This document shows positions 2,928 through 18,814 of a stretch of 20,012 nucleotides of DNA, piece by piece. Made by a program: the position numbers and the translations under genes. The notes under the pieces were generated by a model, which saw nothing but the letters and a program-made list of their open reading frames with translations, was not told the DNA's origin and searched no databases. Position 1 is the stretch's first letter; each line of letters opens with the position of its first letter. Origin of the DNA: Planctomycetaceae bacterium (GTDB lineage Bacteria; Planctomycetota; Planctomycetia; Planctomycetales; Planctomycetaceae). Where the stretch lies: NCBI GenBank assembly GCA_040881995.1, contig JBBECD010000164.1:1-20012 (forward strand), written 5' to 3'.

Positions 2928-3461
2928 ATGCGAATCGTCGTTGACATCATCGTGGACGATCTCGTCGCCGTTGCGAATCACTACCGCACAAAATCCACCT
3001 CGATCAATAAAATCAAACGACGCAGTACGCTGGTGATCGGCGGCGCCTTTATGATCGCTTTTGCTCTGCTGGCATACGTATCACATCGCCCCGGTTTTCT
3101 CATCTTCGGCGGCATCATCGCCGTTCTTTTCATGTTGCTCCACTCCTGGCGGTTCAACCGCTCGTTCGCCGCCAATTCCAAGAGTATCTATATGGAGAAG
3201 AACGGAAAAGGAATCCTCGGCATGAAGGAATTGAGAATCGATGAGGCGGGATTATTCAGCCGGAGCAACTATGCCGAAGCGACCTACTACTGGCATGGCA
3301 TCGATGACGTCGATGAGACGGACGACTATTACTTCGTCTCGGTCGGTGCATCGGGAACCATTATCATCCCCAAAGCCCGCATCCTCGAAGGGGACGCCGA
3401 TGCCTTTATGAATGAAGTCGAAAAACGCTGGATCGCTCACACGGCCGAGGTCGAGGCATAA
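2928..3461 (+). CDS. YcxB-like membrane protein (two TM helices plus PH-like C-terminal domain)
   Basis: N-terminal IVVDIIVDDLVAVANHY region. Two hydrophobic helices. C-terminus KNGKGILGMKELRIDEAGL...YYFVSVGASGTIIIPKARILEG, which matches the pattern of B. subtilis YcxB from memory. Paralog of 3949..4476. Confidence 0.7.
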   Translation: MRIVVDIIVDDLVAVANHYRTKSTSINKIKRRSTLVIGGAFMIAFALLAYVSHRPGFLIFGGIIAVLFMLLHSWRFNRSFAANSKSIYMEKNGKGILGMKELRIDEAGLFSRSNYAEATYYWHGIDDVDETDDYYFVSVGASGTIIIPKARILEGDADAFMNEVEKRWIAHTAEVEA

Positions 3462-3703
3462 CAGATTACCGGCTTTGTCTTCCAGTTTCTCCGTATGGTG
3501 TCGCGCCACACAATCAGGTGCCGCGACACCGCATGCGGACGGAAACGCGACTTTTTCGAGCCCGCAAAAAAGGATTTCAGTCTCGCTTGAATTTTTTGTA
3601 CAGATAAATAAGATCGTATCAGTTCGCACGATCATCTCATCGTCCCCGACGGTCGGGGGAACGAACCTTTCAGAACCGACAGTCGGAATGTTATGGAGTC
3701 ATC

Positions 3704-3949
3704 ATGATCGCGGCCCCTTATTATCTTCTCGCAGCGGGTATTTTGCTGATCGTTCTGGGTGTGATTTTCGCGGCGGTAATGCGGCCGACGATCGACAAAA
3801 CTTACATCGACCCGCGGATGAGCGACAAGCAGATTAAGAAACAACTCGAAAACGCCGACGGCAACCCCGCCGCGGCAATTGTGATTTTGCTGGGATTTGT
3901 GCTCTGCGGGGTGAGCGTCATTTGGCGGGTAGTGCGGATATTTGTGTGA
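3704..3949 (+). CDS. Small 81-aa membrane protein with two TM helices, unknown function
   Basis: GGAG RBS 8 nt upstream of the ATG. Two clear hydrophobic helices (LLAAGILLIVLGVIFAAV and AIVILLGFVLCGVSVIW). Its stop overlaps the next gene's ATG (TGATG). Confidence 0.5.
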   Translation: MIAAPYYLLAAGILLIVLGVIFAAVMRPTIDKTYIDPRMSDKQIKKQLENADGNPAAAIVILLGFVLCGVSVIWRVVRIFV

Positions 3950-4476
3950 TGGAGATTGTCAAGCGAATCGTCGTTGACCTTACTCTGAACGATTTCATGG
4001 CCTTTACGCGATTTGAACTTGCAAATTCGTCCACAATCCGCCGCATGAATAATAGAACGCTCACCGCGTTTATTCTGATGTTTGTGGTTCCCATTGTCGC
4101 GATCTTTTGGCTTTTCGAGCAGGATCGGATGACAATCGTTTCGGGGCTGATTCTCGTCCTGATGTGCATGTTTATCTGGCCGAGGCAAGTGAAAAGAGCC
4201 GAAGAAGAAAGAACAAAAGCCTTCTACAGTCAGTTTTGCCGCGATGAGTTAGTCAATAAGTTGGAAATGCAAATTGAAGACTCCGGACTCGTCATCATTA
4301 CGAATGCGAGCATGACGAATTGGAACTGGCACTCGATCAAACGCATCGAAACGACGGACGATCATCATTTTGTGTTTGTTACCGACACTTCCGCCCTCAT
4401 CATCCCTCGCCAGCACGTGGCTGAAGGAAATGTCGACGCATTTGCAGCGGAAATGAAACGACGCCTGTCAGATTGA
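3949..4476 (+). CDS. YcxB-like membrane protein, paralog of 2928..3461
   Basis: Same architecture as 2928..3461. C-terminal HHFVFVTDTSALIIPRQHVAEGNVDAFAAEMKRR aligns with YYFVSVGASGTIIIPKARILEGDADAFMNEVEKR. ATG overlaps the upstream stop by 1 nt. The six-frame ORF begins at a TTG at 3922. Confidence 0.7.
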   Translation: MEIVKRIVVDLTLNDFMAFTRFELANSSTIRRMNNRTLTAFILMFVVPIVAIFWLFEQDRMTIVSGLILVLMCMFIWPRQVKRAEEERTKAFYSQFCRDELVNKLEMQIEDSGLVIITNASMTNWNWHSIKRIETTDDHHFVFVTDTSALIIPRQHVAEGNVDAFAAEMKRRLSD

Positions 4477-4777
4477 CCGACGTTCGGCTTGAGTACGCCG
4501 CGGTTTCGTGTTATCGTTTTTCCTTCCATCACCTCGAATTTCACCGGATCGATCTTGAGCCGATCGGTCTGAGACGCCCTCGCTCACCACATGCCGTCAT
4601 TGATTTTTGACGTGACTTTCCCCCTGCGTCGCCGCATTCGCGGGCCTCCCCTCGTCGTTTCGCGCTCATGCTCCGTCCTACGAAGACGACGCCATTTCAA
4701 TTCCGTATTCCTTGTTCGAAGAATTCAACCCCCGTCGACCATGAGCCACTCGGCGGTGAAACTCATCGGCTCAATCC

Positions 4778-5144: not shown

Positions 5145-6419
5145 TCACCGCGTCTCGCTTCCGTTGCCGGGGAGGCGGTGGCCCATTTTGTCGCGTTTGG
5201 TGTTCATGTAGACTTCGCGGGTTTTTTCATGCGGGGCGATGATGGGGACTTGCTCGACGACCGTCAGATCGAATGCGTTTTCGAACGGTTCAGTCTTCTT
5301 CGGGTTGTTCGTCAGCAGGCGGATTTTCTTGAGACCTAAATCCTTGAGAATCTGCAGGCCGATGCCGTAGTCGCGCTGGTCGACGCGAAATCCGAGTTCG
5401 GTGTTGGCATCGACGGTGTCGAGTCCCGCATCTTGCAGTTGATACGACTTGAGTTTCGCAACCAGACCGATGCCGCGGCCTTCCTGCGGCAAGTAGACGA
5501 CCGCTCCCGTGCCGTGCTGGTGGATCATCGCCATCGCCATGTGCAACTGGTCGCCGCAATCGCAGCGGAGCGACCCGAGCAGATCGCCGGTGAAGCACGA
5601 GGAGTGCATGCGGATCAGCGGAGCCTCGACGGACTTCAAATCGCCCCAGACGAGGGCCAGCGGCTCCTGATGTTCGTGTTCGACTTTGTAGGCAACGACG
5701 CGCACGCTGCCGTACTGAGCCGTGGGGATGTCGACTTCGACCGCGCGGTGAATCAGCCGTTCGCGCTGCATGCGGTAACGAATGAGGTCGGTCGTGCTGA
5801 TGATCGGCAGCGAATAGGTCTGCGAGAGTTCGGCGAGCTCGCGGTAATCGGCCATGCCGTCGCCGGTGGCACTGCAGATTTCGATCAGCGCTCCGACCGG
5901 CTTGAGTCCGGCGAGTTTGAGCAGATCGATGGTGGCCTCGGTATGACCGGCCCGGCGCAGAACGCCCCCCTCTTTCGCCGAGAGAGGCATGATGTGTCCC
6001 GGGCGGACGAAATCGATGGCGTGCGCTTCGGGGTCGGCGAGCGATTTGAGCGTCAAAGCTCGCGCGGAGGAGCTGACTCCCGAGCCGGAATTGCGGTGAT
6101 CGACGGGCGTGAGAAAATGCGTGCGGTTGGGGGCGTTGTTGTTTTCGCTGCTGACGATCGGGACGAGACTGAGCCGGTCGGCGATCTCTTTGGTCATCGG
6201 GGCGCACAGCACGCCGCGTCCGTTGCGGAGCATGAAGTGCACCATCTCGGGGGTGATCGATTCGGCGGCGCAGATGAAGTCCCCTTCATTCTCGCGGTCG
6301 GCCTCGTCGACGACGATAATCATTTTGCCTTGTTTAAGGGCTTCGAGTGCCGCGTCGACGGAATGATATGCAATACCCGGCGAGGGATCGGGGGAGGTGA
6401 GCAGCGAGCGTTCGATCAC
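5145..6419 (-). CDS. ribBA: Bifunctional 3,4-dihydroxy-2-butanone-4-phosphate synthase / GTP cyclohydrolase II
   Basis: N-terminal DHBP synthase domain (VVDEADRENEGDFICAAE...HTEATIDLLKLAGL). C-terminal GTP cyclohydrolase II with zinc-binding CFTGDLLGSLRCDCG and LTNNPKK motif. GTG start at 6419. Confidence 0.95.
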   Translation of the reverse strand: MIERSLLTSPDPSPGIAYHSVDAALEALKQGKMIIVVDEADRENEGDFICAAESITPEMVHFMLRNGRGVLCAPMTKEIADRLSLVPIVSSENNNAPNRTHFLTPVDHRNSGSGVSSSARALTLKSLADPEAHAIDFVRPGHIMPLSAKEGGVLRRAGHTEATIDLLKLAGLKPVGALIEICSATGDGMADYRELAELSQTYSLPIISTTDLIRYRMQRERLIHRAVEVDIPTAQYGSVRVVAYKVEHEHQEPLALVWGDLKSVEAPLIRMHSSCFTGDLLGSLRCDCGDQLHMAMAMIHQHGTGAVVYLPQEGRGIGLVAKLKSYQLQDAGLDTVDANTELGFRVDQRDYGIGLQILKDLGLKKIRLLTNNPKKTEPFENAFDLTVVEQVPIIAPHEKTREVYMNTKRDKMGHRLPGNGSETR

Positions 6420-6523
6420 GTTTGGTTCTCTTTTTCACGCAGTTTCGAGAAAGGCAGTTGTCATACCGCTTTCATTGTATGACGAGACGGGGCGTGAAAG
6501 AAGAGCGCGGGAGCGGGAATGGC

Positions 6524-6663
6524 GAATGTCGAAGCTCGAATGTCGAATCAAGTCCGAATGACGAATGACCAAATGTCGAATGGCACGCTAATGTCAACGT
6601 TTCGACATTCGGGCTTTGGACTTCGTCATTGATTCGTCATTCGGATTTCGTCATTCGACATTC
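6524..6663. repeat. Palindromic array: about 4 direct GAATGWCGAA decamers on the left arm, and 4 of the complement TTCGWCATTC on the right arm
   Basis: Read directly: gaatgtcgaa x3 and gaatgacgaa on the left, ttcgacattc/ttcgtcattc x4 on the right, centred near 6590. Spans from the SPFH gene stop to the ribBA leader. Confidence 0.7.
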
Positions 6664-8344
6664 ACCGCGAGACTTTGGGCGCACTCGCCGGCTTCACCGG
6701 CGGGGAATATTCGGACGTCGCTTCGTCCTGCTTCATCTGGCGGCCGAGCATCACGTCGGTGAAGCCTTTGAGGTCGGTCCAGAAGGTTCCCTGGCCGGCG
6801 TAGAGCAGATTGAGCTGGATGTCGTCGGGCAAGCCGGAAGCGAACACCCATTGGTTGTAGGCTTCGCCGCTGCCGAAGGCCTCGACGGCGAGCTGGAACT
6901 TCTGCGATTTGGCTTCCTGCATCAGCTTCTCGGCGTCGGCATCGGCCCGGCCCAACAGCACGACGGCCTGCGCGTCGAGTTCGGCGGTCTCCCTAGCAAT
7001 CGTGGCGACTTTCTTCTGCGTCTCGGCTTTGGTCTGCTCGGCTACCTTTTGCCCCTCGGCGATCGCTTCGGCGACGAGCTTGCCGGTCTCGAGTTCGGTT
7101 CGTTCCGATTCGAGTTCGACCTTCTGTTCTTCCTCGCGCAAAGTCGCCTCGGTTTTCGCGGTCAACTGTTCCTGATCGCGGGTCAACTTAAGTTCGTTGG
7201 CGATGTTCGACAGTTGAATCGGCAGACGCACTTCCCGCGGGATGTACATGTGACGCACGAGTCCGTACAGCAGCGAGAGTTCTTTTTCTTCAAGAACCTT
7301 CTTAAACGATTCGGTCGTTTCGTCCTGAAAACCCTGGCGGGTTTCGCCGACGAGCAGATCGACTGCGCCGACTTTTGAACCCATGTTGCGGCAGATGCTT
7401 TCGATCTGCGGGCCGATGACTTTGGTTTCCACGGCGTCGATGTTGCCGAACTTGCGAATCACTTCGGGGGCCTGTTCGGGCAAGATGCCCCAGATCGCCG
7501 TGAAATCCATGTGAATCTTGAAACCGTCTTTCGACGGGAAGGTGATGCCGCTCTCCTGGTCGGCGAGCATCGGTTCGCCGCTTTCGTCGAAAATCAGATC
7601 GCCGGCCTGATCGGCTTTCAGGTTGACGGTCAGAGAGAGTTCGCGATAGCCGATTTTGACGAGATCGACATGTTGCTCTTTGGGATTGATGGCGTAGAGT
7701 CCGGGAGGGAGCGTCTGATCCTGGATACCGGCTTTGGCCCCGGTCTCTTTATCGCCGGTCAAATTGGTGACGACGCCGATATATCCCGCCGGGATATCGA
7801 CCCAGCCGTTGTGCCGTTTGTCGTAGGTGACAGCGGCATCTTCGGTCGCGACGATCTCAAATTTGTAGGCGTAGTCGTTGATGCGATACCGGCCGGGGCC
7901 GAAGACGCGGCGGACGATGCCCTTGTGCTGCGTCGCGCCGAGATCCCCTTCGACGAGGAATTCTCCTTTCGGCAGGTCGTTCCCCATCTTGCTGCTGGCG
8001 ATGCCGACTTGACCGGGCTTGACTTCGACGTCCTCGATCAGCGTGCATTCCCACCAGAGCGGGTTATAAAAATGCCGCCCTGGGCCGACCATCTGTTCGA
8101 GCACGCCGACCTGGGTCGGTCTGCCCTGTTCGTCGACTTCGGCGAACGTTCCCGGTGTGACGGCCGGCAGACTCCCCGGCAGCCCTGGCAGCGGCGGGCC
8201 TTTGTATCTCAGCCTCATGCTATAGCCGACCGGGACGTAACGGTAGTTGACGGTCCACTGGACCGCTTCCCAACCGGCATACACGCCGGGGACGAGCAGC
8301 AGGACGGCGACGATCAGATAACTGGTCCATTTTTCGCGGAACAT
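6662..8344 (-). CDS. SPFH/band-7 (flotillin/YqiK-like) membrane protein. N-terminal TM, duplicated beta-rich module, SPFH domain and coiled coil
   Basis: N-terminal TM helix (YLIVAVLLLVPGVYAGW). SPFH core FPSKDGFKIHMDFTAIWGILPEQAPEVIRKFG. Long Glu/Ala/Lys-rich coiled coil (EQLTAKTEATLREEEQKVELE...). GAGGA RBS 8 nt upstream. Confidence 0.85.
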   Translation of the reverse strand: MFREKWTSYLIVAVLLLVPGVYAGWEAVQWTVNYRYVPVGYSMRLRYKGPPLPGLPGSLPAVTPGTFAEVDEQGRPTQVGVLEQMVGPGRHFYNPLWWECTLIEDVEVKPGQVGIASSKMGNDLPKGEFLVEGDLGATQHKGIVRRVFGPGRYRINDYAYKFEIVATEDAAVTYDKRHNGWVDIPAGYIGVVTNLTGDKETGAKAGIQDQTLPPGLYAINPKEQHVDLVKIGYRELSLTVNLKADQAGDLIFDESGEPMLADQESGITFPSKDGFKIHMDFTAIWGILPEQAPEVIRKFGNIDAVETKVIGPQIESICRNMGSKVGAVDLLVGETRQGFQDETTESFKKVLEEKELSLLYGLVRHMYIPREVRLPIQLSNIANELKLTRDQEQLTAKTEATLREEEQKVELESERTELETGKLVAEAIAEGQKVAEQTKAETQKKVATIARETAELDAQAVVLLGRADADAEKLMQEAKSQKFQLAVEAFGSGEAYNQWVFASGLPDDIQLNLLYAGQGTFWTDLKGFTDVMLGRQMKQDEATSEYSPPVKPASAPKVSR

Positions 8345-8406
8345 GTTCGTTCCTCACTTTCAAATAACACGCGATCCACCATCAGCCACGACTTACCACG
8401 CACGAC

Positions 8407-8442
8407 TCACTATCCACTGACCACTATCCACTATCCACTTCA
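8407..8442. repeat. Short tandem nonamer repeat CTATCCACT (about 3.5 copies) in the intergenic region between the two SPFH genes
   Basis: cactatccactgaccactatccactatccacttcac read directly. Confidence 0.6.
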
Positions 8443-8455
8443 CGGATCAGGCGTT

Positions 8456-10045
8456 TCACTCCCCGGCGGTTTTTACTTCCGCTTCGCTGACGGGCGCAGT
8501 CCCTTTGGCGTCTTCACCGATCTGCTCGGGGGCGAACTGATCGAAGATCTTCATGATCGGGCTGTCGGCGGTATTCACCATGATCCGCTGATACGCCGAC
8601 GAAAGTTTCTGATACAGCACGTACTGCGAATACTGGCGACCGTTTCCGGAGAACGCCGCCACCGCGGCTTTCCAGCCTGCGGCTTCGGCCTCGTTCTGGA
8701 ACTCGATGACTTCGGCTTCGGCCTTGCCCTTCGCCATAATCGCCGCCGCTTCATCGTTTGCGGCATCGAGGCGGAACTGGGCCACGGCCTTCTTTTCATC
8801 GGCCTTAGTGAGGGCCACTTCCTGTTCCTGCTTGGCCTGCGTGGTCAGCTTGATGACCTGCTGATCGGCGGAAACCAACGCCTGCTTCTGCAGCACGAGA
8901 GCTTTTTCGATCGCCAGTTTCTGTTCCGATTCCTGCTGTAGAATCTGCTGCTGAAATTGTTTTTCGAGCTGCTTGGCGATTTCCCGTTCGCGCACCGGCT
9001 TGAGAATCTGCTCGGGAGGACTGATTCGCGTGATGAGCGCCTGCACGATGTCAATTCCCTGCGGCTGGCATTCCGTCCGCAACTGATGTTGAAACGCCTC
9101 CTGGAACTTGCTGCGGTCGCCCATGAACTCGCGTCCGAGGATGTTCGACCCCTGCAGCCGGCAAAAACTTCGGGCGTTCGGCAAAATGATCTTGCGGATG
9201 ATGTCTTCGTCGATGTTTTGGCCGTTCGCCATCTCGTTGTAGATCACGTAGACTTCGGCGGCCTTTTCGGGCATCACGTGAAATTCGATCACGCCGTCGA
9301 GGCTCACCCAGAAGCCGTCTTTCGACGGGAATCCCATATCTTTTTTATCCGCGAGGTTGAAGCGCTGGCTGCGGCAATCGACGAGGCTGATCCGTTCGGC
9401 GTACGGATTGTAATAATACGTGCCCGGGTCGAGAGCTTCTTTTTGCACGCCCCGTTCGCCCGGTGCGGCCAGCAACGCATTGAGATCTCTCGGCAGTTTT
9501 CCGGCGAGATTTGTGACCACTCCCTTAAAGCCGGCGGGAACCGTTTGCGGTTCGTGAATCTCGACAACAAACATATAAGGGTTGACCGGATAACGGCCGG
9601 GATTGAGCACCTGCGGAATGATCCCCTTCGTCGTCACGATATCGGGATCGGCGAGCACGTTTCCTTCAGATTTGAGATGGGCCAGAAACTCGCCATGCGG
9701 TAAATCGTCGCCGCACAGGTTGATCAGCACCCCCAACTCTCCCGCGGGGATTTCGATCTGCTTGTGGATTTCCCAATCCCAATAGAACGGGTTTTTGAAG
9801 TAGCGCCCTTCCGTCAGCACTCGGCGCTGCACCCCTTTGTATTCTTCGCTGGGGGCGATTTCCATATCGTTGGCGAGATCTTTTCCCGCCTTGGAAATCA
9901 ACACGGCAATCTCGCCGGTTCCGACGTCGATGCGGAACATCTTGTAGACCATGTAACTCCCGGCGAAGAGCATCACGAGGCCCAGGGTCACGGGAATCCA
10001 CGATTTTCCCTTCGGCCGTCGTTCCAGAAAGATGGTGTGTGACAT
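8456..10045 (-). CDS. SPFH/band-7 (flotillin-like) membrane protein, paralog of 6662..8344
   Basis: TM helix (IPVTLGLVMLFAGSYMVY). SPFH core FPSKDGFWVSLDGVIEFHV...ILPNARSFCRLQGS. Gln/Glu-rich coiled coil. N-terminal modules share GxxGVxxNLxGxxLPxGEFL with the paralog. ATG at 10045. Alternative GTG start at 10078. Confidence 0.85.
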   Translation of the reverse strand: MSHTIFLERRPKGKSWIPVTLGLVMLFAGSYMVYKMFRIDVGTGEIAVLISKAGKDLANDMEIAPSEEYKGVQRRVLTEGRYFKNPFYWDWEIHKQIEIPAGELGVLINLCGDDLPHGEFLAHLKSEGNVLADPDIVTTKGIIPQVLNPGRYPVNPYMFVVEIHEPQTVPAGFKGVVTNLAGKLPRDLNALLAAPGERGVQKEALDPGTYYYNPYAERISLVDCRSQRFNLADKKDMGFPSKDGFWVSLDGVIEFHVMPEKAAEVYVIYNEMANGQNIDEDIIRKIILPNARSFCRLQGSNILGREFMGDRSKFQEAFQHQLRTECQPQGIDIVQALITRISPPEQILKPVREREIAKQLEKQFQQQILQQESEQKLAIEKALVLQKQALVSADQQVIKLTTQAKQEQEVALTKADEKKAVAQFRLDAANDEAAAIMAKGKAEAEVIEFQNEAEAAGWKAAVAAFSGNGRQYSQYVLYQKLSSAYQRIMVNTADSPIMKIFDQFAPEQIGEDAKGTAPVSEAEVKTAGE

Positions 10046-10853: not shown

Positions 10854-12509
10854 ATGACATACGATCTGATCGTGATTGGCAGCGGGCCCGCGGGGCAAAA
10901 GTCGGCGATCGCCGCCACGAAACTCGGCAAAAAAGTGGCGATCATCGAACGCCAGAAATCGCTGATGGGGGGGGTCTGCCTGCATACCGGCACCATCCCC
11001 TCCAAAACGATGCGCGAAGCGATTCTGCACCTCACCGGATACCGGCAGCGCGACGTCTACGCCGATCAATACCGCCGCAAGCGGTCGATTACCATGAACG
11101 ACCTCCGCCGCAAACTCGCGCACGTCACGCAGCTCGAACTCGAAGTCATTCACGATCAGCTCGAACGCAACGGCGTCGAATTCTTTTCGGGTCAGGCCCG
11201 GCTCGCCAGTCCGCATCACGTCGAAGTCCATTCACACGATGGCGGCACGCAAGTCCTCTCGGGCGAATTCTTCATGTTGTGCTGCGGCACCAAACCCGCG
11301 CGGCCCGCTCACATTCCGTTCGACGGCAATTGCATCTTCGACTCCGATGAGATCCTCAATCTCCAGCACATTCCCCGTTCGATGATCGTCGTCGGCGGCG
11401 GCGTGATCGGCATCGAATACGCCATCATGTTCGCCACCCTGGGCGTGCAGGTCACGGTCGTCGACGGCCGCGAACGCTTGCTCGATTTCTGCGACCGCGA
11501 AATCGTCGACACGCTGCTGCATCATGCCCGTTCGTTGAATATGACGTTCCGCCTGGGTGAAGAAGTGGTCGGCATGGAACGCCGCGGACCGCAACTCGCC
11601 GCCGTCCATCTCGAAAGCGGCAAACGTCTGATGGCAGAGACCGTGCTCTACAGCGTGGGACGAGTGGGTGACACTGACGATCTGAACCTCGCCGCCGCCG
11701 GCCTCGAACCCGACGAACGAGGCCGGCTGTGGTGCAACGAGTTTCATCAGACGTGGGTGCCGCACATCTACGGCGCCGGCGACGTGGTCGGATTTCCCGC
11801 GCTGGCCAGCGTGTCGATGGAACAAGGCCGCCGCGCCGTCTGCCATGCCTTCGGAGCCTCGTTCGACGCCTGCAATCACATGCCGTACGGACTGTTCACG
11901 ATTCCCGAAATTTCGATGGTCGGCAAGACCGAGCAGCAACTCACCGCCGAAAAAGTTCCGTACGAAGTCGGCATCGCCCGGTATCGGGAAATCGCCCGCG
12001 GGTACATCGTCGGCGATCAGACGGGGATGCTCAAACTGCTGTTCCACCGCGAAACCCGCAAGCTGCTTGGCATTCACTGCATCGGCGAAATGTCGACGGA
12101 GATCATCCACATCGGCCAGGCGGTCCTCGCCCTCGGCGGCACGATCGATTACTTCCGCGACACGGTCTTCAATTACCCGACGATGGCAGAGTGTTACAAG
12201 GTCGCCGCGTTCGACGGGCTGAAAAAGTTGAGCTACGACTGCGAACCATGCGAGGTCGTTCCGAGCGTCGACGCCGACGTCAACGACTATATGGCGGTCG
12301 CGTCGCGAAAGGCATCGGCGTCGGAGCGAAACGCGACCCCGACCGAGAGCACAAACTTCTCAGTCCGCCGCGAAGTGAAACGAAATCTGATTACGACGGG
12401 CGAGACGACCGGGATCGTCCCCCCTGCCGTCGCCAATCCATTCGAAACGATCGCGACGGTCCCGCAGTCAATCGACAGCGAAGCGGAGGCGGACGAGTTG
12501 GCGGTTTGA
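10854..12509 (+). CDS. sthA: Soluble pyridine nucleotide transhydrogenase (Si-specific NAD(P)+ transhydrogenase) with an ~85-aa C-terminal extension
   Basis: FAD motif IVIGSGPAG. Single-Cys [13 protein letters not shown] as in E. coli SthA (GGGCTHWGTIPSK). Near-identical block [27 protein letters not shown] (E. coli [27 protein letters not shown]). RBS AAGAGGTG. Confidence 0.9.
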   Translation: [551 protein letters not shown]

Positions 12510-13910: not shown

Positions 13911-14134
13911 CGAATACTCCCCTTAAATACCAGCGAGCGACATCAGAATATTTGCGCGGAAGCGACGTCTCCGTCAGCCATCTCGTGCACAAATGAATGG
14001 AGCCATTGCGTTAATCCACGATCTTGACGAGGGCGAAAAACCGTTCATGCTATCCTAACCTCGCCGCCGCGACGTTGTCCAGCGGCGACAGGGTGATGCC
14101 GTAAATATCGCAAGAAGTCCCCTGTCTGAAGAAA

Positions 14135-14296
14135 ATAATGGTGGTGTCCTAATTTGGAAGAACTCAGCGGGTGGCACGTCCCTGAGCGGCTGTTCGGATG
14201 CAATACCGTGCGAAGGGCGTGGTTCTCTTCAGCAATCGACACGCCCGTCGAAGACTCCGGGACGTGCCACCCAAATTAGGACACCACTAAAATAAT
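14135..14296. mobile_element. MITE-like element or large structured palindrome. About 35-bp terminal inverted repeats around a ~75-bp core
   Basis: Left arm aataatGGTGGTGTCCTAATTTGG(12-nt insert)GGTGGCACGTCCC. Right arm GGGACGTGCCACCCAAATTAGGACACCACtaaaataat. Nested imperfect hairpin in the core (cgaagggcgtg...cacgcccgtcg). Confidence 0.5.
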
Positions 14297-14315
14297 CGAG
14301 AGACGGCAATGCGGC

Positions 14316-14343
14316 TTGCATTCTACATATTTTTGTGTAGAAT
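14316..14343 (+). promoter_or_regulatory. Sigma70-like promoter TTGCAT-N16-TAGAAT overlapped by a palindromic operator ATTCTACA-N8-TGTAGAAT. Candidate Rrf2 autoregulatory site
   Basis: Read directly. The -10 element ends about 30 nt upstream of the Rrf2 ATG. RBS AAGGAGAG follows. The 8+8 palindrome has an AT-rich centre typical of Rrf2/NsrR sites. Confidence 0.55.
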
Positions 14344-14372
14344 AGAGTCCGTTCTTCAAAAGGAGAGACGCG

Positions 14373-14801
14373 ATGCTCACGAAAACGGCGGAATACGCGC
14401 TTCGCATCGCCGCCTGCCTGGCGGCTGACGGCGAAGCTCCGGAATCGGCCGATCGCCTTGCCGAAGTCACCAAGATTCCCAGGCGATATTTGCCGACCGT
14501 GCTGCAAGATCTCGTTCGCGCGGAACTGGTTCGATCCCGTTCCGGTCCCGGAGGGGGATATTCGTTGGCGAGACCCGCCGATAAGATCACGATTCTCGAC
14601 GTCGTCAACGCCGTCTCTCCCCTCGAACGAATTCGACATTGCCCCCTTGGATTGCCCTCCCATACGCGGCTTTGCCCGCTACATAAAGTGCTCGACCAGG
14701 CCTATGCGGAAACCGAAAAGGCTTTCGCCGGCGTGACGATCGCGGACGTGCTGAACTCCGTCACAGACGTCGTCCCCCTCTGCGATGTTTCATGCTCATG
14801 A
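14373..14801 (+). CDS. Rrf2-family transcriptional regulator (NsrR/IscR-like) with non-canonical Cys spacing
   Basis: N-terminal wHTH MLTKTAEYALRIAACLA. GGGYSLARP motif. Cys cluster CPLGLPSHTRLCPLH plus C-terminal PLCDVSCS. Strong RBS. Confidence 0.85.
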   Translation: MLTKTAEYALRIAACLAADGEAPESADRLAEVTKIPRRYLPTVLQDLVRAELVRSRSGPGGGYSLARPADKITILDVVNAVSPLERIRHCPLGLPSHTRLCPLHKVLDQAYAETEKAFAGVTIADVLNSVTDVVPLCDVSCS

Positions 14802-14893
14802 GATGTCATGCGCCGTCATCCACGCACGACATCAAACGTTGTGTCCCGCCATCAACTTAAAAAACTCCCTCATATAGACGCAGGAACAAATCG

Positions 14894-15550
14894 ATGAACA
14901 TCATCCATGCTATTCGCCCGAAAATCGTTTGTGCAGCCGCTCTCGGGCTGAGCTTTGCGTCGGCCTTTTGCGTCGCGACGGCTCAGGACGAAGTCCCCGC
15001 CGCGAAATCCAAAAAACGCGCTCGACCGGCACTCACCATCGAAGACAAAGATCGCGTCTCGGTCGACGTCGCACGCGACCGAGCCAGAACCATGCACGAA
15101 GTTTACGCGGCGACGCTGGAAACCATGCATCACCATTATTTCCACGGCGACAAGGCAGCCGTCCCGGCGCGTGCGATGGAAGACACCTTCTACTCGATCA
15201 AGCACGAGCTCAAAATCGAGGCACGCTGGATTGCCGTAAACGCCAGAGCCATGAGCATCGATCACGAAGCCGAAACCGAATTCGAAAAGGACGCGGTCCG
15301 CGTTCTCTCGTCGGGCAAGTCGGCTTACGAAAACGTAGATAAGGGCTTCTATCGTCGCGCGGGAACGATACCGCTGCACGGGGGCTGCATCCGCTGCCAC
15401 AGCAATGTGTTCGGAGAGCCGCCTAAAGTCGCGAAATTCGCGGGGCTGGTGATCAGCGTGCCGATCCATCTCGAGGGCGAACAGGCCGATCCCGACGCGG
15501 CTGAGTCGGACAGCGTCGAAGCCAAAAAAAGCAGCGCCCCCGCCGAATAA
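14894..15550 (+). CDS. Secreted c-type heme protein, DUF3365/Tll0287-like (PAS-like heme sensor domain). Paralog of 15632..16192
   Basis: Signal peptide (AFCVATA-QDE). Single CXXCH (GGCIRCHSN). Conserved blocks HEVYAATLETMHHHYFH, RWIAVNARAMSIDH, GFYRRAGTIPL shared with the downstream paralog. Confidence 0.7.
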   Translation: MNIIHAIRPKIVCAAALGLSFASAFCVATAQDEVPAAKSKKRARPALTIEDKDRVSVDVARDRARTMHEVYAATLETMHHHYFHGDKAAVPARAMEDTFYSIKHELKIEARWIAVNARAMSIDHEAETEFEKDAVRVLSSGKSAYENVDKGFYRRAGTIPLHGGCIRCHSNVFGEPPKVAKFAGLVISVPIHLEGEQADPDAAESDSVEAKKSSAPAE

Positions 15551-15631
15551 CGGACTTCACCCCCGCCGCGGTCATCCGCCGACCGCAACTTCCCTCCTGT
15601 TTTTCTCCCTCAACTCACCCCGAGGACCATC

Positions 15632-16192
15632 ATGACGAACTCCATAGGGATCATCTCCCCGATCGCGGTCTGTCTATCGGTATTGACCATCAGCCACGGC
15701 AGCGATTCCTCTAAGACGGCGCCTCAAACCGCCGGCAGTTCCGCTGAGAAAATCGCAGCAAAAATTGAACCTCCCACGTTGGCGGCAGCCCGCCGGCAGG
15801 CTGAAATCCTGCACGAGGCGATGCACGATACGCTGCAGATCGTGCATCACCAATATTACCGCGAAGACCAGGGTCTGCCGATTCCCGCCGCGATTTTGAA
15901 GGAGGTTTTCGCCGAACTCGAAAAAGAACAGCACGTCACGCTCCGCTGGCTCGCCGTCGAGGGGCAGGCGATGAACACCGACCACAAACCCCAAGACGAT
16001 TTCGAACGCGCGGCGGCGAAGGCGTTAGGTTCGGGCCAACGGGCCTATGAGGCGGTCGAAGCAGGCCTCTACCGCCGAGCCGGCCCGATCACGCTGAACA
16101 ACCATTGCCTCAAATGCCACGTCCCCGACCGCAAGAGCACCGAAGACCGCACCGCGGGATTGATCATCTCGATGAAGATTGAAGCGGATTGA
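15632..16192 (+). CDS. Secreted c-type heme protein, DUF3365/Tll0287-like. Paralog of 14894..15550
   Basis: Signal peptide. CXXCH (NHCLKCHVP). Blocks HEAMHDTLQIVHHQYY, RWLAVEGQAMNTDH, GLYRRAGPITL. RBS GAGGA. Confidence 0.7.
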   Translation: MTNSIGIISPIAVCLSVLTISHGSDSSKTAPQTAGSSAEKIAAKIEPPTLAAARRQAEILHEAMHDTLQIVHHQYYREDQGLPIPAAILKEVFAELEKEQHVTLRWLAVEGQAMNTDHKPQDDFERAAAKALGSGQRAYEAVEAGLYRRAGPITLNNHCLKCHVPDRKSTEDRTAGLIISMKIEAD

Positions 16193-16831: not shown

Positions 16832-17449
16832 TTAACGCCGCGGAAATCCCGGCGGCCGATTGCCGATGGGGGGATTATTTCGATTGCGGTCGTGGTCATG
16901 ATCGTGATCGTGGTCGCCATGCCCGTGGCGGGTTTTTACGCCGTAGTCGTCCATCAGGTGATGCAGCGTTTGTTCGCATTCGGCGATCTCGACGTGCAGC
17001 GCGGCACGGGGCGTGTAGCGTGAATCGGGACGCCAGTTTTGTACGTCCGCCTGGAATTCGTGAAACTGCCGGTCGAGTTCATAGAGTTCGTGAGCGACGC
17101 GGTCGTCGAGGCGAGGATGTTGGCCGGCATGTCCGCGGACGATGAAATCGAGCTTCTTCGCCGTTTCCTTAATCGCATACATGTCGCGGTAGACCGACTT
17201 GAAACCGCGGTTGTCGCGATAGTGCCGGTGCATTTCCCAGCAGATGTCGTTCGCTTCGCGGTACAATCGCTTCGCCAACACGTCGACGTGAGAACGTCCG
17301 CCAAACCGGTATTCGTTGGGACCAGCCGGCCCGCGCGGACCCTGCGGCCGAGGCCCTTGAGGCCGCGGTTGAAACTGCGCCGACGCCGAACCGGCGCTCA
17401 GCACCGAGAACGCCGCCAACAAAACAAATGCGAGAATGGGTCGAGACAT
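16832..17449 (-). CDS. Secreted His-rich protein with a C-terminal (His-Asp)n repeat. Putative periplasmic metal-binding protein
   Basis: Excellent RBS AAGGAGGAAG. Signal peptide MSRPILAFVLLAAFSVLSAGSASA-QF. Pro-rich QPRPQGPRPQGPRGPAGP. About 20 His. C-terminus HGHGDHDHDHDHD encoded by tandem gatcgtgatcgtggtc repeats. The ORF extends to 17596, but the signal-peptide ATG is favoured. Confidence 0.7.
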   Translation of the reverse strand: MSRPILAFVLLAAFSVLSAGSASAQFQPRPQGPRPQGPRGPAGPNEYRFGGRSHVDVLAKRLYREANDICWEMHRHYRDNRGFKSVYRDMYAIKETAKKLDFIVRGHAGQHPRLDDRVAHELYELDRQFHEFQADVQNWRPDSRYTPRAALHVEIAECEQTLHHLMDDYGVKTRHGHGDHDHDHDHDRNRNNPPIGNRPPGFPRR

Positions 17450-17510
17450 GGTCTTCCTCCTTGAGATGATGTAGAAACACTTTCCGCGGGTCATTCCTGG
17501 GAACGCGGGG

Positions 17511-17538
17511 ATAGTATCGATGAAACGAAAATGCGTCA
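17511..17538 (-). promoter_or_regulatory. Near-consensus sigma70 promoter TTGACG-N17-TACTAT driving the His-rich gene
   Basis: On the minus strand: ttgacgcattttcgtttcatcgatactat, read directly. The -10 element is ~60 nt upstream of the ATG at 17449. Confidence 0.5.
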
Positions 17539-17647
17539 ATCGGGGTATTTTTTTCGTCTCTGCGTTCCTCCGCGCCCTCGATTTAACGGGATTCAAATCG
17601 ACCCGTTCCCATTTCTCTTCCCCTTGGGCTATCCCACCCAGTCTGTG

Positions 17648-18091
17648 TCAAAGCGCCGTGGGGCTGGCCGAGAGATCGCACAACGGGTGACTGGTGGTCG
17701 GCTCGGCCAAAACTTCCGCGAGCGTGGTTTGCCGGAATGCATCCTCGACCAGGGCCATCGCGTGATCCATGCGTTTGTGCAAAGGGCAAAGTCGAATGCC
17801 GTGCGATTTCAAACCGAGAGGACATTGGCGAATGCGGACAATCGGTTCCACGGAATTGACGACGTCGAGAATGGTCAGTTCGGAGGGTGTTTTCACCAAA
17901 GCGACCCCGCCCCCGACGCCCCGTTTGGAGTGCGCGATCCCGGATCGGCATAAACCCTGAACGACCTTCGAGAGATAAGGTCTCGGCACAAGCGTGGCGA
18001 CGGCGATCTGTTCGGTCGTCCGAGGCGACGGCGCATGCTCGGCAAGATGCACCACCGCGCGCAACGCATATTCGACGGTCTGAGAAAACAT
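17648..18091 (-). CDS. Rrf2-family transcriptional regulator (NsrR-like), paralog of 14373..14801
   Basis: MFSQTVEYALRAVVHLA wHTH. GGGVALVKTP. Same Cys pattern CPLGLKSHGIRLCPLH plus PLCD. Divergent from the globin gene. Confidence 0.85.
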   Translation of the reverse strand: MFSQTVEYALRAVVHLAEHAPSPRTTEQIAVATLVPRPYLSKVVQGLCRSGIAHSKRGVGGGVALVKTPSELTILDVVNSVEPIVRIRQCPLGLKSHGIRLCPLHKRMDHAMALVEDAFRQTTLAEVLAEPTTSHPLCDLSASPTAL

Positions 18092-18146
18092 TAAAAATAT
18101 TCCAAAAAAAAGTTAAACTGGACCTTGACGTCTAATTAACGATCTC

Positions 18147-18169
18147 ATATCCTGTTCGAAATTGGATAT
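18147..18169. promoter_or_regulatory. Candidate operator ATATCC-N11-GGATAT (TTCGAA core) in the divergent Rrf2/globin promoter region
   Basis: Inverted 6-mers read directly. A TTGACG -35-like element lies at 18125-18130. Confidence 0.3.
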
Positions 18170-18226
18170 TCACATCCTATTATCCACGGCCATCCGAGCA
18201 CCGTCAACCGCAAACAGGAGCAGAAC

Positions 18227-18814
18227 ATGATTAAAATCGACGAAAAGCGACTCGAAACCGACCTCGGTTATCGCTTCGACTACCTCATCAAATTCATGGG
18301 ATTCGGCGAAGACGACGTGGCGGCCATCCACGGCGCCGCACCGGCCATTGCCCCGCTCGTCCCGGCCCTGGTCGACGCCGTCTACGAAAAGCTGCATACC
18401 TACGACGCCACCTGGAGGCACTTTCTGCCGCGGCAGTCGGGATACGAAGGAGCCGTGCCGAAAAGCCTCGAAGAGGTCACCCCCGATCACGAGATGATCC
18501 GCTTCCGCAAAGAGCATCTGGCTCGCTACCTGGCGGCGCTGGTCACCAAACCGTACGACGGCAAGATGGTCGGCTATCTCGACATGGTCGGAAAAATTCA
18601 CACGCCGAAAGCAGGATCCACAGAACTCAACGTCCCGCTGGTCCAAATGAATGCCTTGCTCGGTTTTGTGGCCGACGCTTTGACGAATACGATCTTGAGC
18701 CTGGAACTGGAACGAGCCGTCGAAGTCCAAACGCTGCGTGCGTTCAACAAGTTGCTCTGGCTGCAAAACGACCTTATCAACCGCCATTACCAGGACGCCG
18801 CGCTGCTGAGGTGA
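18227..18814 (+). CDS. Single-domain protoglobin-like globin (globin-coupled-sensor type fold)
   Basis: 195 aa. Pattern FDYLIKFMGFGEDDVAAIH...LVDAVYEKLHTY...RKEHLARYLAALVTKPYDGKMVGYLDMVGKIHTPKAG matches protoglobin/GCS globins, including a proximal His in the GxxH motif. RBS AGGAG. Confidence 0.8.
   Translation: MIKIDEKRLETDLGYRFDYLIKFMGFGEDDVAAIHGAAPAIAPLVPALVDAVYEKLHTYDATWRHFLPRQSGYEGAVPKSLEEVTPDHEMIRFRKEHLARYLAALVTKPYDGKMVGYLDMVGKIHTPKAGSTELNVPLVQMNALLGFVADALTNTILSLELERAVEVQTLRAFNKLLWLQNDLINRHYQDAALLR

Follow-up and report, generated by a model that had tools for sequence, protein, structure and literature searches.

The window analysed here, a stretch of 20,012 nucleotides that is a complete NCBI contig of a metagenome-assembled genome (MAG) from a Planctomycetaceae bacterium, contains a gene for an Rrf2-family regulator (Rrf2a) followed on the same strand by genes for two paralogous proteins of the DUF3365/Tll0287-like family, TllA and TllB, predicted to be secreted and to carry c-type heme. 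The order of these genes and a dyad upstream of Rrf2a are conserved in other planctomycetes, the products belong to recognizable families and folds, and in some relatives the cluster is co-located with nitric oxide (NO) detoxification genes. We suggest, with a confidence that lies only slightly above even, that the cluster is an autoregulated NO/nitrosative-stress operon in which Rrf2a would repress itself and tllA-tllB, while the periplasmic heme proteins would handle NO. Stand-alone DUF3365 proteins, now called sCache_heme, make up around half of a very large family and none of them has an established physiological role.

The operon and its upstream dyad

The elements of the cluster are the following:

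14316-14343, + strand: promoter-like hexamers TTGCAT (14316-14321) and TAGAAT (14338-14343) with a 16-nt spacer, upstream of Rrf2a, as read from the sequence
14320-14343, no strand assigned: putative operator dyad ATTCTACA-N8-TGTAGAAT with perfect 8-nt arms, a candidate site for an Rrf2a dimer that overlaps the promoter
14373-14801, + strand: Rrf2a, 142 aa, Rrf2-family winged-helix regulator, assigned by PF02082 and invariant residues
14894-15550, + strand: TllA, 218 aa, predicted secreted stand-alone heme-c Cache (Tll0287-like) protein with CXXCH at residues 165-169
15632-16192, + strand: TllB, 186 aa, predicted secreted stand-alone heme-c Cache (Tll0287-like) protein with CXXCH at residues 159-163

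The open reading frames (ORFs) agree with the description in the earlier note on this DNA, which had reported an Rrf2 gene with two paralogous signal-peptide proteins behind it, on the same strand and separated by short gaps. In the ORF listing these gaps measure 92 nt between Rrf2a and TllA and 81 nt between TllA and TllB, and a Shine-Dalgarno-like purine run precedes each of the three genes. No intrinsic terminator was predicted on the + strand between them by the terminator scan, and the Rfam search of the window matched no RNA family. Right after the Rrf2a stop codon, inside the 92-nt gap before TllA, there is an inverted repeat with 11-nt arms (GATGTCATGCG-N10-CGCACGACATC, 14802-14833); in orthologous loci the corresponding gap is mostly much shorter than in the window.

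The locus was surveyed with one genome per GTDB species, searching six-frame ORFs with the window proteins. We obtained 80 loci, all from Planctomycetota save a few evident MAG mislabels, with these arrangements:

Rrf2a-TllA-TllB on the same strand: 38 of 80 loci
Rrf2a-TllB: 5-6 of 80 loci
TllA-TllB without Rrf2: 13 of 80 loci, 6 of which are cut by a contig end
Divergent Rrf2 adjoining TllB: 2 of 80 loci
More distant solitary TllB-like gene: 22 of 80 loci

The association of Rrf2 with DUF3365 genes, which the earlier note had proposed to look for in other Planctomycetota, is found there repeatedly, as seen in the first two arrangements, and in many of the 80 loci the genes abut or even overlap.

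The palindrome that had been pointed out at 14320-14343 is real and its 8-nt arms are perfect. It is the sole match to ATTCTACA-N8-TGTAGAAT in the 20-kb window when up to 3 mismatches are allowed, with 0.03 matches expected. For the footprinting we took the DNA upstream of the Rrf2a start in 44 orthologous loci and in the window, and the dyad was found in all 45 of them, each site retaining 11 to 16 of the 16 arm positions. Counted from the Rrf2 start, 43 of these sites fall between -46 and -64 and the remaining two at -79 and -132; all of them overlap TTG(A/C)AT-16-TAGAAT. The arms are complementary at most positions in 30-40 of the 40 distinct sites, and in several lineages both were altered symmetrically (AATCTACA...TGTAGATT; AATCTATA...TATAGATT; AATAATACA...TGCATTATT). 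We counted 24 such symmetric changes against 12.9 expected from column shuffles, a number reached in 1 of 1000 shuffles by a control that ignores phylogeny. A weight-matrix scan of the 820 kb of fetched sequence retrieved the motif essentially only at the known sites and at four loci without an adjacent Rrf2 (L019, L030, L032 and L046), where it stands directly upstream of TllA/TllB. That the dyad follows the heme-protein genes even where no Rrf2 is adjacent is the strongest evidence that TllA and TllB are its regulatory target.

The palindrome could also be a mere conserved promoter, the three genes being neighbors without any regulatory tie. Its right arm holds the -10-like TAGAAT and its left arm abuts the -35-like TTGCAT, so that some conservation would be expected anyway; TTGCAT matches TTGACA at 3/6 positions, and the consensus promoter scanner, which applies a 4-of-6 rule, did not list the pair. 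However, the left arm ATTCTACA is located within the spacer, where promoters are not conserved, and thus promoter conservation alone cannot explain the dyad. The complementarity and the symmetric changes of the arms (as in AATCTACA/TGTAGATT and AATCTATA/TATAGATT), the different dyad that goes with the paralogous regulator Rrf2b (see below) and the presence of the motif beside Tll genes without an adjacent Rrf2 speak against this explanation too, and we consider it very improbable. Phylogenetic footprinting gives strong support to the putative control by Rrf2 through the upstream palindrome, as claimed before.

Just upstream of the Rrf2a promoter there is a very stable nested hairpin (14122-14306; arms of 34 nt and 18 nt; deltaG of -89 kcal/mol, z=-7.7 against shuffles), which falls in the 462-nt divergent region between Rrf2a and a DUF1559 gene. 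It has no Rfam match, and the tested arm sequences are absent from the other fetched loci and from the rest of the window.

The paired Cache proteins with a predicted c-type heme

Both proteins are above the gathering score of the DUF3365 hidden Markov model (PF11845, cut-off of 24.1 bits), TllA with 26.0 bits (E=1.4e-5) and TllB with 39.7 bits (E=8e-10), in agreement with the family first proposed for them. They are paralogues with 34% identity (E=4e-34) and each contains a single CXXCH motif (C165/C168/H169 in TllA; C159/C162/H163 in TllB). Its Cys and His are kept in orthologs, the CXXCH being invariant in alignments of 121 TllB-type and 68 TllA-type homologues. Further invariant residues are His72/79, Met114/120, His118/124 and Trp106/112 (TllB/TllA numbering). 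Signal peptides were judged from sequence and hydropathy. A hydrophobic N-terminal segment is found in TllA and TllB, and likewise in 116/118 and 64/68 homologues; TllA has an ATA/QD cleavage-like site and TllB is devoid of a basic n-region.

The AlphaFold2 models are confident in the core (predicted local distance difference test, pLDDT, of 83.6 for TllB and 80.9 for TllA) and place the CXXCH in a helix just before the last beta-strand (157-163 in TllB, 164-170 in TllA). The first-ranked Foldseek match of both is the Tll0287 crystal structure 5B82 (E=2.8e-4 for TllB, 9e-4 for TllA), followed by the Geobacter heme-c sensor domains GSU0935 and GSU0582. The models thus predict for TllA and TllB a Cache-type fold resembling the Tll0287 crystal structure, with which a comparison had been recommended. 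The domain had been described as a PAS heme domain, but its fold is Cache rather than PAS according to Deshpande, Xing, Gumerov, Crane and Zhulin (2026, bioRxiv 10.64898/2026.02.01.703092), who renamed DUF3365/Tll0287 as sCache_heme. In their data the CXXCH is found in ~99% of the members and "nearly half" of them are stand-alone, so a free DUF3365 protein is not unusual, contrary to the previous statement that this domain is normally the N-terminal sensor of kinases or methyl-accepting chemotaxis proteins (MCPs).

Searches of PDB sequences with TllB alone and with the clade profile did not retrieve 5B82/Tll0287. Since Tll0287 is linked to TllA and TllB through Pfam and fold only, the position of its Cys68 cannot be mapped by alignment. 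Outside the N-terminal segments, TllA and TllB contain no cysteines other than those of the CXXCH, and no other conserved Cys column was found in the homologue alignments. The axial cysteine of the Tll0287 subgroup (Cys68 in Tll0287; Cys59 in the Pseudomonas putida protein) is therefore missing in the mature proteins, and the Cys/His heme ligation of the Tll0287 type that the earlier note had mentioned cannot apply to them. The invariant His72/79, located at the end of helix 1, would occupy roughly the site of Tll0287 Cys68 or GSU0935 Met60, to judge by its distance in sequence from the proximal His, and the invariant "AM(N/S)xDH" loop may supply alternative Met or His distal ligands.

The ligation matters for the interpretation of these proteins. 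NO binding is weak in the Cys/His-ligated stand-alone member from P. putida, for which a redox role was put forward, while the HAMP-linked P. azotoformans sCache_heme, without the axial Cys, binds NO tightly, with a koff of ~6e-4 s-1 (bioRxiv 10.64898/2026.02.01.703092). In GSU0582 and GSU0935 the heme is ligated by His/water or His/Met60; these domains bind NO whether oxidized or reduced, and their dimers are helix-swapped (PMC8396549). As these relatives without an axial Cys (P. azotoformans, GSU0582 and GSU0935) bind NO, we count them in favor of NO binding by TllA and TllB. Stand-alone family members without the axial cysteine do exist, and they do not fit the proposed division into redox proteins that stand alone and NO sensors that are fused.

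Homology searches recovered 434 (TllB) and 545 (TllA) clusters at 90% identity, almost all of 170-220 aa with PF11845 as the sole domain, and all names stating an organism were planctomycete. From 1.84 billion representatives searched with the clade profile, 424 clusters at 50% identity were found, nearly all of them short stand-alone proteins. TllA and TllB have neither an output domain nor a conserved transducer alongside; they would be regulated products and not a cytoplasmic sensor. They could still belong to a split signalling system, as periplasmic heme sensors docking on a membrane transducer encoded elsewhere, with Rrf2 setting only their expression level. Signalling outputs are fused to about half of the domain family, and a separate kinase serves one HAMP-only receptor; according to a follow-up preprint, the receptor of P. 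azotoformans acts via a Ser/Thr kinase. Some of the distant solitary TllB-like genes adjoin HAMP histidine kinases (L024, L080, L028 and L059). On the other hand, no transducer gene is conserved beside Rrf2-TllA-TllB in the 38 loci, TllA and TllB have no transmembrane or output segment, and their conserved partners are enzymes or heme proteins (the monoheme protein c3, flavohemoglobin and quinol-dependent NO reductase, see below) instead of signalling proteins, all of which makes this arrangement rather improbable.

Natural single-chain TllA-TllB fusions were found in P0123 (on 20 contigs), P0126 and P0127, each with one signal peptide and two CXXCH domains, which argues that the two proteins work together. 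A TllA-TllB heterodimer similar to the swapped Geobacter dimers would be an attractive model.

The regulator and its probable link to nitric oxide

Rrf2a matches PF02082 over residues 2-128 with 101 bits (cut-off of 30; E=6.9e-29) and TIGR00738 (rrf2_super) with 108 bits (cut-off of 73), so the assignment to Rrf2 holds. In NCBIfam, Rrf2a and Rrf2b are assigned to the Rrf2 superfamily only, and the NsrR, IscR, RirA and SufR equivalogs give them 30-54 bits against cut-offs of 110-275. The "NsrR-like" identity first given to Rrf2a does not stand: the NsrR equivalog NF008240 scores 47 bits where the cut-off is 182, the closest solved relative is the redox sensor RsrR (6HSD, E=1e-15) ahead of NsrR (5N07, E=1e-4), and the invariant cysteines are spaced C-X10-C-X35-C, not in the C-X5-C-X5-C pattern of NsrR, with Glu7 at the N-terminal acidic position. 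The likeness to NsrR is functional, taken from the genomic context, and is not one of orthology.

Within the 45 Rrf2a orthologues, E7, C90, H97, C101, H104 and C137 (in a PLC motif) are invariant, and the same residues are retained in Rrf2b. Two of them, E7 and C101, correspond in the alignment to E8 and C110, cluster ligands of RsrR. The complete RsrR ligand set (Glu8, His12, Cys90 and Cys110) is not present in Rrf2a, where His12 is replaced by Arg11 and Cys90 is unaligned. Given three invariant Cys and an N-terminal carboxylate from the partner subunit, an iron-sulfur (Fe-S) cluster is a reasonable expectation, and Rrf2a probably carries it on C90/C101/C137 and E7 of the partner subunit.

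Among the additional partners of the Rrf2-Tll cluster, the most frequent (27 of the 80 loci) is c3, a secreted monoheme protein of ~450 aa with one CXXCH (NCL[VI]CH) and no match in Pfam, NCBIfam or PDB. It is usually divergent across the dyad-bearing region or directly upstream of TllB, and often followed by a quinol-dependent NO reductase (qNOR); examples are L019:182-1537(-) and L074:4427-5776(+). In the cultured Planctomicrobium sp. SH661 (NZ_CP195791.1, locus L057), c3 is divergent from Rrf2-TllB. A flavohemoglobin gene (hmp) is immediately divergent from Rrf2a in 5 loci (L058, at 3434-4762(-); L060-62; L066), its product scoring 540 bits against the NCBIfam equivalog "NO-inducible flavohemoprotein" (cut-off of 432). 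qNOR (PF22085+PF00115) is present in 6 loci. In L016 (1037-3295(-)) and L060-62 it follows c3 in the divergent operon, while L074 and L075 have the order Rrf2(-), then c3-TllB-qNOR-cupin(+), with a weak NnrS-like gene upstream (qNOR of L074 at 6243-8708(+)). At ~3 kb downstream of the Tll operon of L058 (6618-12516), and also of L060-62 and L066, a third Rrf2 heads an operon of multiheme cytochrome c, 4Fe-4S ferredoxin and NrfD; a molybdopterin oxidoreductase gene is divergent from this operon.

The enzymes Hmp and qNOR both consume NO and are canonical NO-regulon members. As single-copy genes found within 6 kb in 8 of the 80 loci, they occur far above chance, although these loci are not phylogenetically independent. 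Such neighbors make NO or nitrosative stress the favored signal; the main rival is a redox or micro-oxic one. The dyad-bearing divergent region would drive hmp, qNOR or c3 in these relatives, which supports a role in NO stress. The gas or NO theme of the earlier note is thus backed by the flavohemoglobin, qNOR and protoglobin neighbors of related genomes.

Some observations weigh against an NO operon. No NO-metabolism genes were found in the window, where tblastn with hmp, qNOR, c3 and NnrS queries was empty, and the NO link comes from 8 of the 80 loci, which belong to only a few lineages, and from a single protoglobin locus. The regulator is no orthologue of NsrR, and its nearest solved relative, RsrR, senses redox state and not NO. 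The sole stand-alone sCache_heme tested, from P. putida, is the weak NO binder mentioned above with a proposed redox role; yet it is Cys/His-ligated, unlike TllA and TllB.

These points would suit a redox- or oxygen-responsive module, with Rrf2a as an RsrR-like switch and TllA/TllB as periplasmic electron carriers or redox buffers. Besides the proximity of Rrf2a to RsrR (E=1e-15, against 1e-4 for NsrR) and the redox roles that the preprint gives to stand-alone members, protoglobin, Hmp and qNOR are typically found in adaptation to micro-oxic conditions as well, and c3 and qNOR could be redox partners. However, the regulator departs from RsrR in having Arg11 for His12, an unaligned Cys90 and three invariant Cys instead of two, and TllA/TllB do not have the Cys ligand that goes with the redox-type behavior of the P. 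putida protein. Moreover, Hmp and qNOR consume NO and are classic NO-regulon members, and qNOR receives its electrons from quinol, not from cytochrome c. We therefore regard a redox module as unlikely, and prefer the NO/nitrosative-stress operon.

In the mechanism that we infer for this NO/nitrosative-stress operon, a cytoplasmic Rrf2a dimer would bind ATTCTACA-N8-TGTAGAAT over the -35/-10 hexamers and repress its own gene and tllA-tllB. NO, or a closely related nitrosative or redox insult, would damage or modify the Fe-S cluster, upon which Rrf2a would leave the DNA and the operon would be transcribed. TllA and TllB would be exported via their Sec signal peptides, receive one covalent c-type heme each and act jointly in the periplasm, probably as a heterodimer. 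Since they do not have the Cys axial ligand of Tll0287, a displaceable distal ligand is likely (candidates are His72/79, Met114/120 and His118/124), and they may act by NO binding or buffering, or as electron donors to NO-handling proteins of the periplasm or to partners such as c3. They could be a Cache-fold functional counterpart of cytochrome c'.

A second Rrf2 module and comparison with known systems

Downstream of the Tll operon, the window contains another Rrf2 and heme-protein module:

17648-18091, - strand: Rrf2b, PF02082 (E=1e-25), 48% identity to Rrf2a, with the same invariant Cys/His/Glu set
18116-18137 and 18160-18181, no strand assigned: two dyads AATTGGAT-N6-ATCCAATT in the Rrf2b/protoglobin intergenic region, putative Rrf2b operators
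18227-18814, + strand: protoglobin, a cytoplasmic heme-b globin, PF11563 (E=6e-38)

The divergent pair of Rrf2b and protoglobin is conserved in 43 of 53 metagenomic loci. Both AATTGGAT-N6-ATCCAATT boxes, which differ from the Rrf2a dyad, reappear when the intergenic regions of the protoglobin loci are aligned, and also in L163, which suggests that Rrf2b is the regulator of the neighboring protoglobin module. A single regulator for both modules of the window was considered and discarded for this genome, as the Rrf2a dyad is absent upstream of Rrf2b/protoglobin and elsewhere in the window. In L163 (7443-10576; JGI Ga0500020_0000044), protoglobin, c3 and TllB form a same-strand cluster opposite an Rrf2b orthologue with 80% identity, and Rrf2b-type dyads are present. 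This cluster ties the two Rrf2/heme modules of the window together, in what is there one putative operon. The arrangement is rare: no protoglobin was found within 6 kb of the 80 Tll loci, and no Tll gene within 4 kb of 80 protoglobin loci.

It is possible, though on balance doubtful, that all these elements form one larger system, in which TllA and TllB would be a domain-swapped, heterodimeric NO-binding hemoprotein of the periplasm within a planctomycete nitrosative-stress regulon that also includes c3, protoglobin, flavohemoglobin and qNOR, under two paralogous Rrf2 proteins with a C-X10-C-X35-C (+Glu) Fe-S site not described before and two distinct operators. If true, this regulon would provide a first physiological role for the stand-alone half of a family with more than 20,000 members.

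Two other genes of the window were noticed around these modules. The gene at 16832-17596(-) encodes a secreted protein without a Pfam match, whose C-terminus is rich in His and Asp (HGHGDHDHDHDHD); in L002, the closest relative, an orthologue occupies the same place behind TllB. Upstream of the cluster, 10854-12509(+) encodes a 551-aa pyridine nucleotide-disulfide oxidoreductase with a long C-terminal extension, whose position is kept only in the two closest relatives, L001 and L002.

The components of the system are known families, and the genes of the window are already annotated as Rrf2 and DUF3365 (TllA as "DUF3365 domain-containing protein", P0121). What appears to be undescribed is the Rrf2 linkage of DUF3365 proteins, the conserved operon with its putative operator, the pairs and fusions of stand-alone heme-Cache proteins without the axial Cys, a distinctive clade of Rrf2 proteins with an unusual cysteine pattern, and the links of the Rrf2-Tll operon to hmp, qNOR, protoglobin and c3. 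Planctomycetes, Rrf2, NsrR and operons are not mentioned in bioRxiv 10.64898/2026.02.01.703092, and nothing on the present system was found in the literature on Rrf2 with protoglobin, on Rrf2 and NO in planctomycetes or on NsrR in planctomycetes. The locus offers a concrete and testable context for the stand-alone proteins, with a conserved operon, a defined putative operator and recurrent flavohemoglobin, qNOR and protoglobin links in relatives. It also sketches how Planctomycetota, in which NO responses are essentially unstudied, may organize their nitrosative-stress defence.

Among the known regulators, NsrR, the NO-sensing [4Fe-4S] repressor of hmp and further NO-detoxification genes in Escherichia coli, Bacillus subtilis and Streptomyces coelicolor (5N07), shares with Rrf2a the Rrf2 family, three invariant Cys with an N-terminal acidic residue and a dyad operator, putative in the case of Rrf2a, over the promoter; in relatives of the window, the putative operator region is common to hmp and qNOR, the archetypal NsrR targets. 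Nevertheless, Rrf2a is not its orthologue, the cysteine spacing differs (C-X5-C-X5-C with Asp8 of the partner subunit in NsrR), the operator sequence is unrelated, and the putative core targets of Rrf2a, genes for predicted periplasmic heme-c Cache proteins, are not known to be controlled by NsrR. RsrR of Streptomyces venezuelae (6HSD), a [2Fe-2S] protein, is the closest solved homologue, and its Glu8/Cys110 align with Glu7/Cys101. It differs from Rrf2a by the change of His12 to Arg and the unaligned Cys90, by the additional invariant Cys137 (PLC), His97 and His104 of Rrf2a, and by the genomic context, which is NO-related in the Rrf2a clade.

For the heme proteins, Tll0287 of Thermosynechococcus (5B82) has only 12-13% identity with TllA/TllB, which lack its axial cysteine and, unlike it, occur as a conserved pair of paralogues or a fusion under a putative Rrf2 operator. 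GSU0582 and GSU0935 (3B47 and 3B42) belong to the same domain family and have no Cys ligand either. Their distal water or Met60 is displaced by NO/CO, and their domain-swapped dimers are a plausible model for a TllA-TllB heterodimer; however, the Geobacter domains are fused to MCP modules, whereas TllA and TllB are free, soluble and without an output domain. The nearest functional analogue could be cytochrome c' of denitrifiers and Neisseria, also a small periplasmic monoheme c protein with no enzyme fused to it, which is expressed together with NO-detoxification genes and thought to buffer NO, although it is a four-helix bundle with five-coordinate high-spin heme and has no homology with TllA and TllB.

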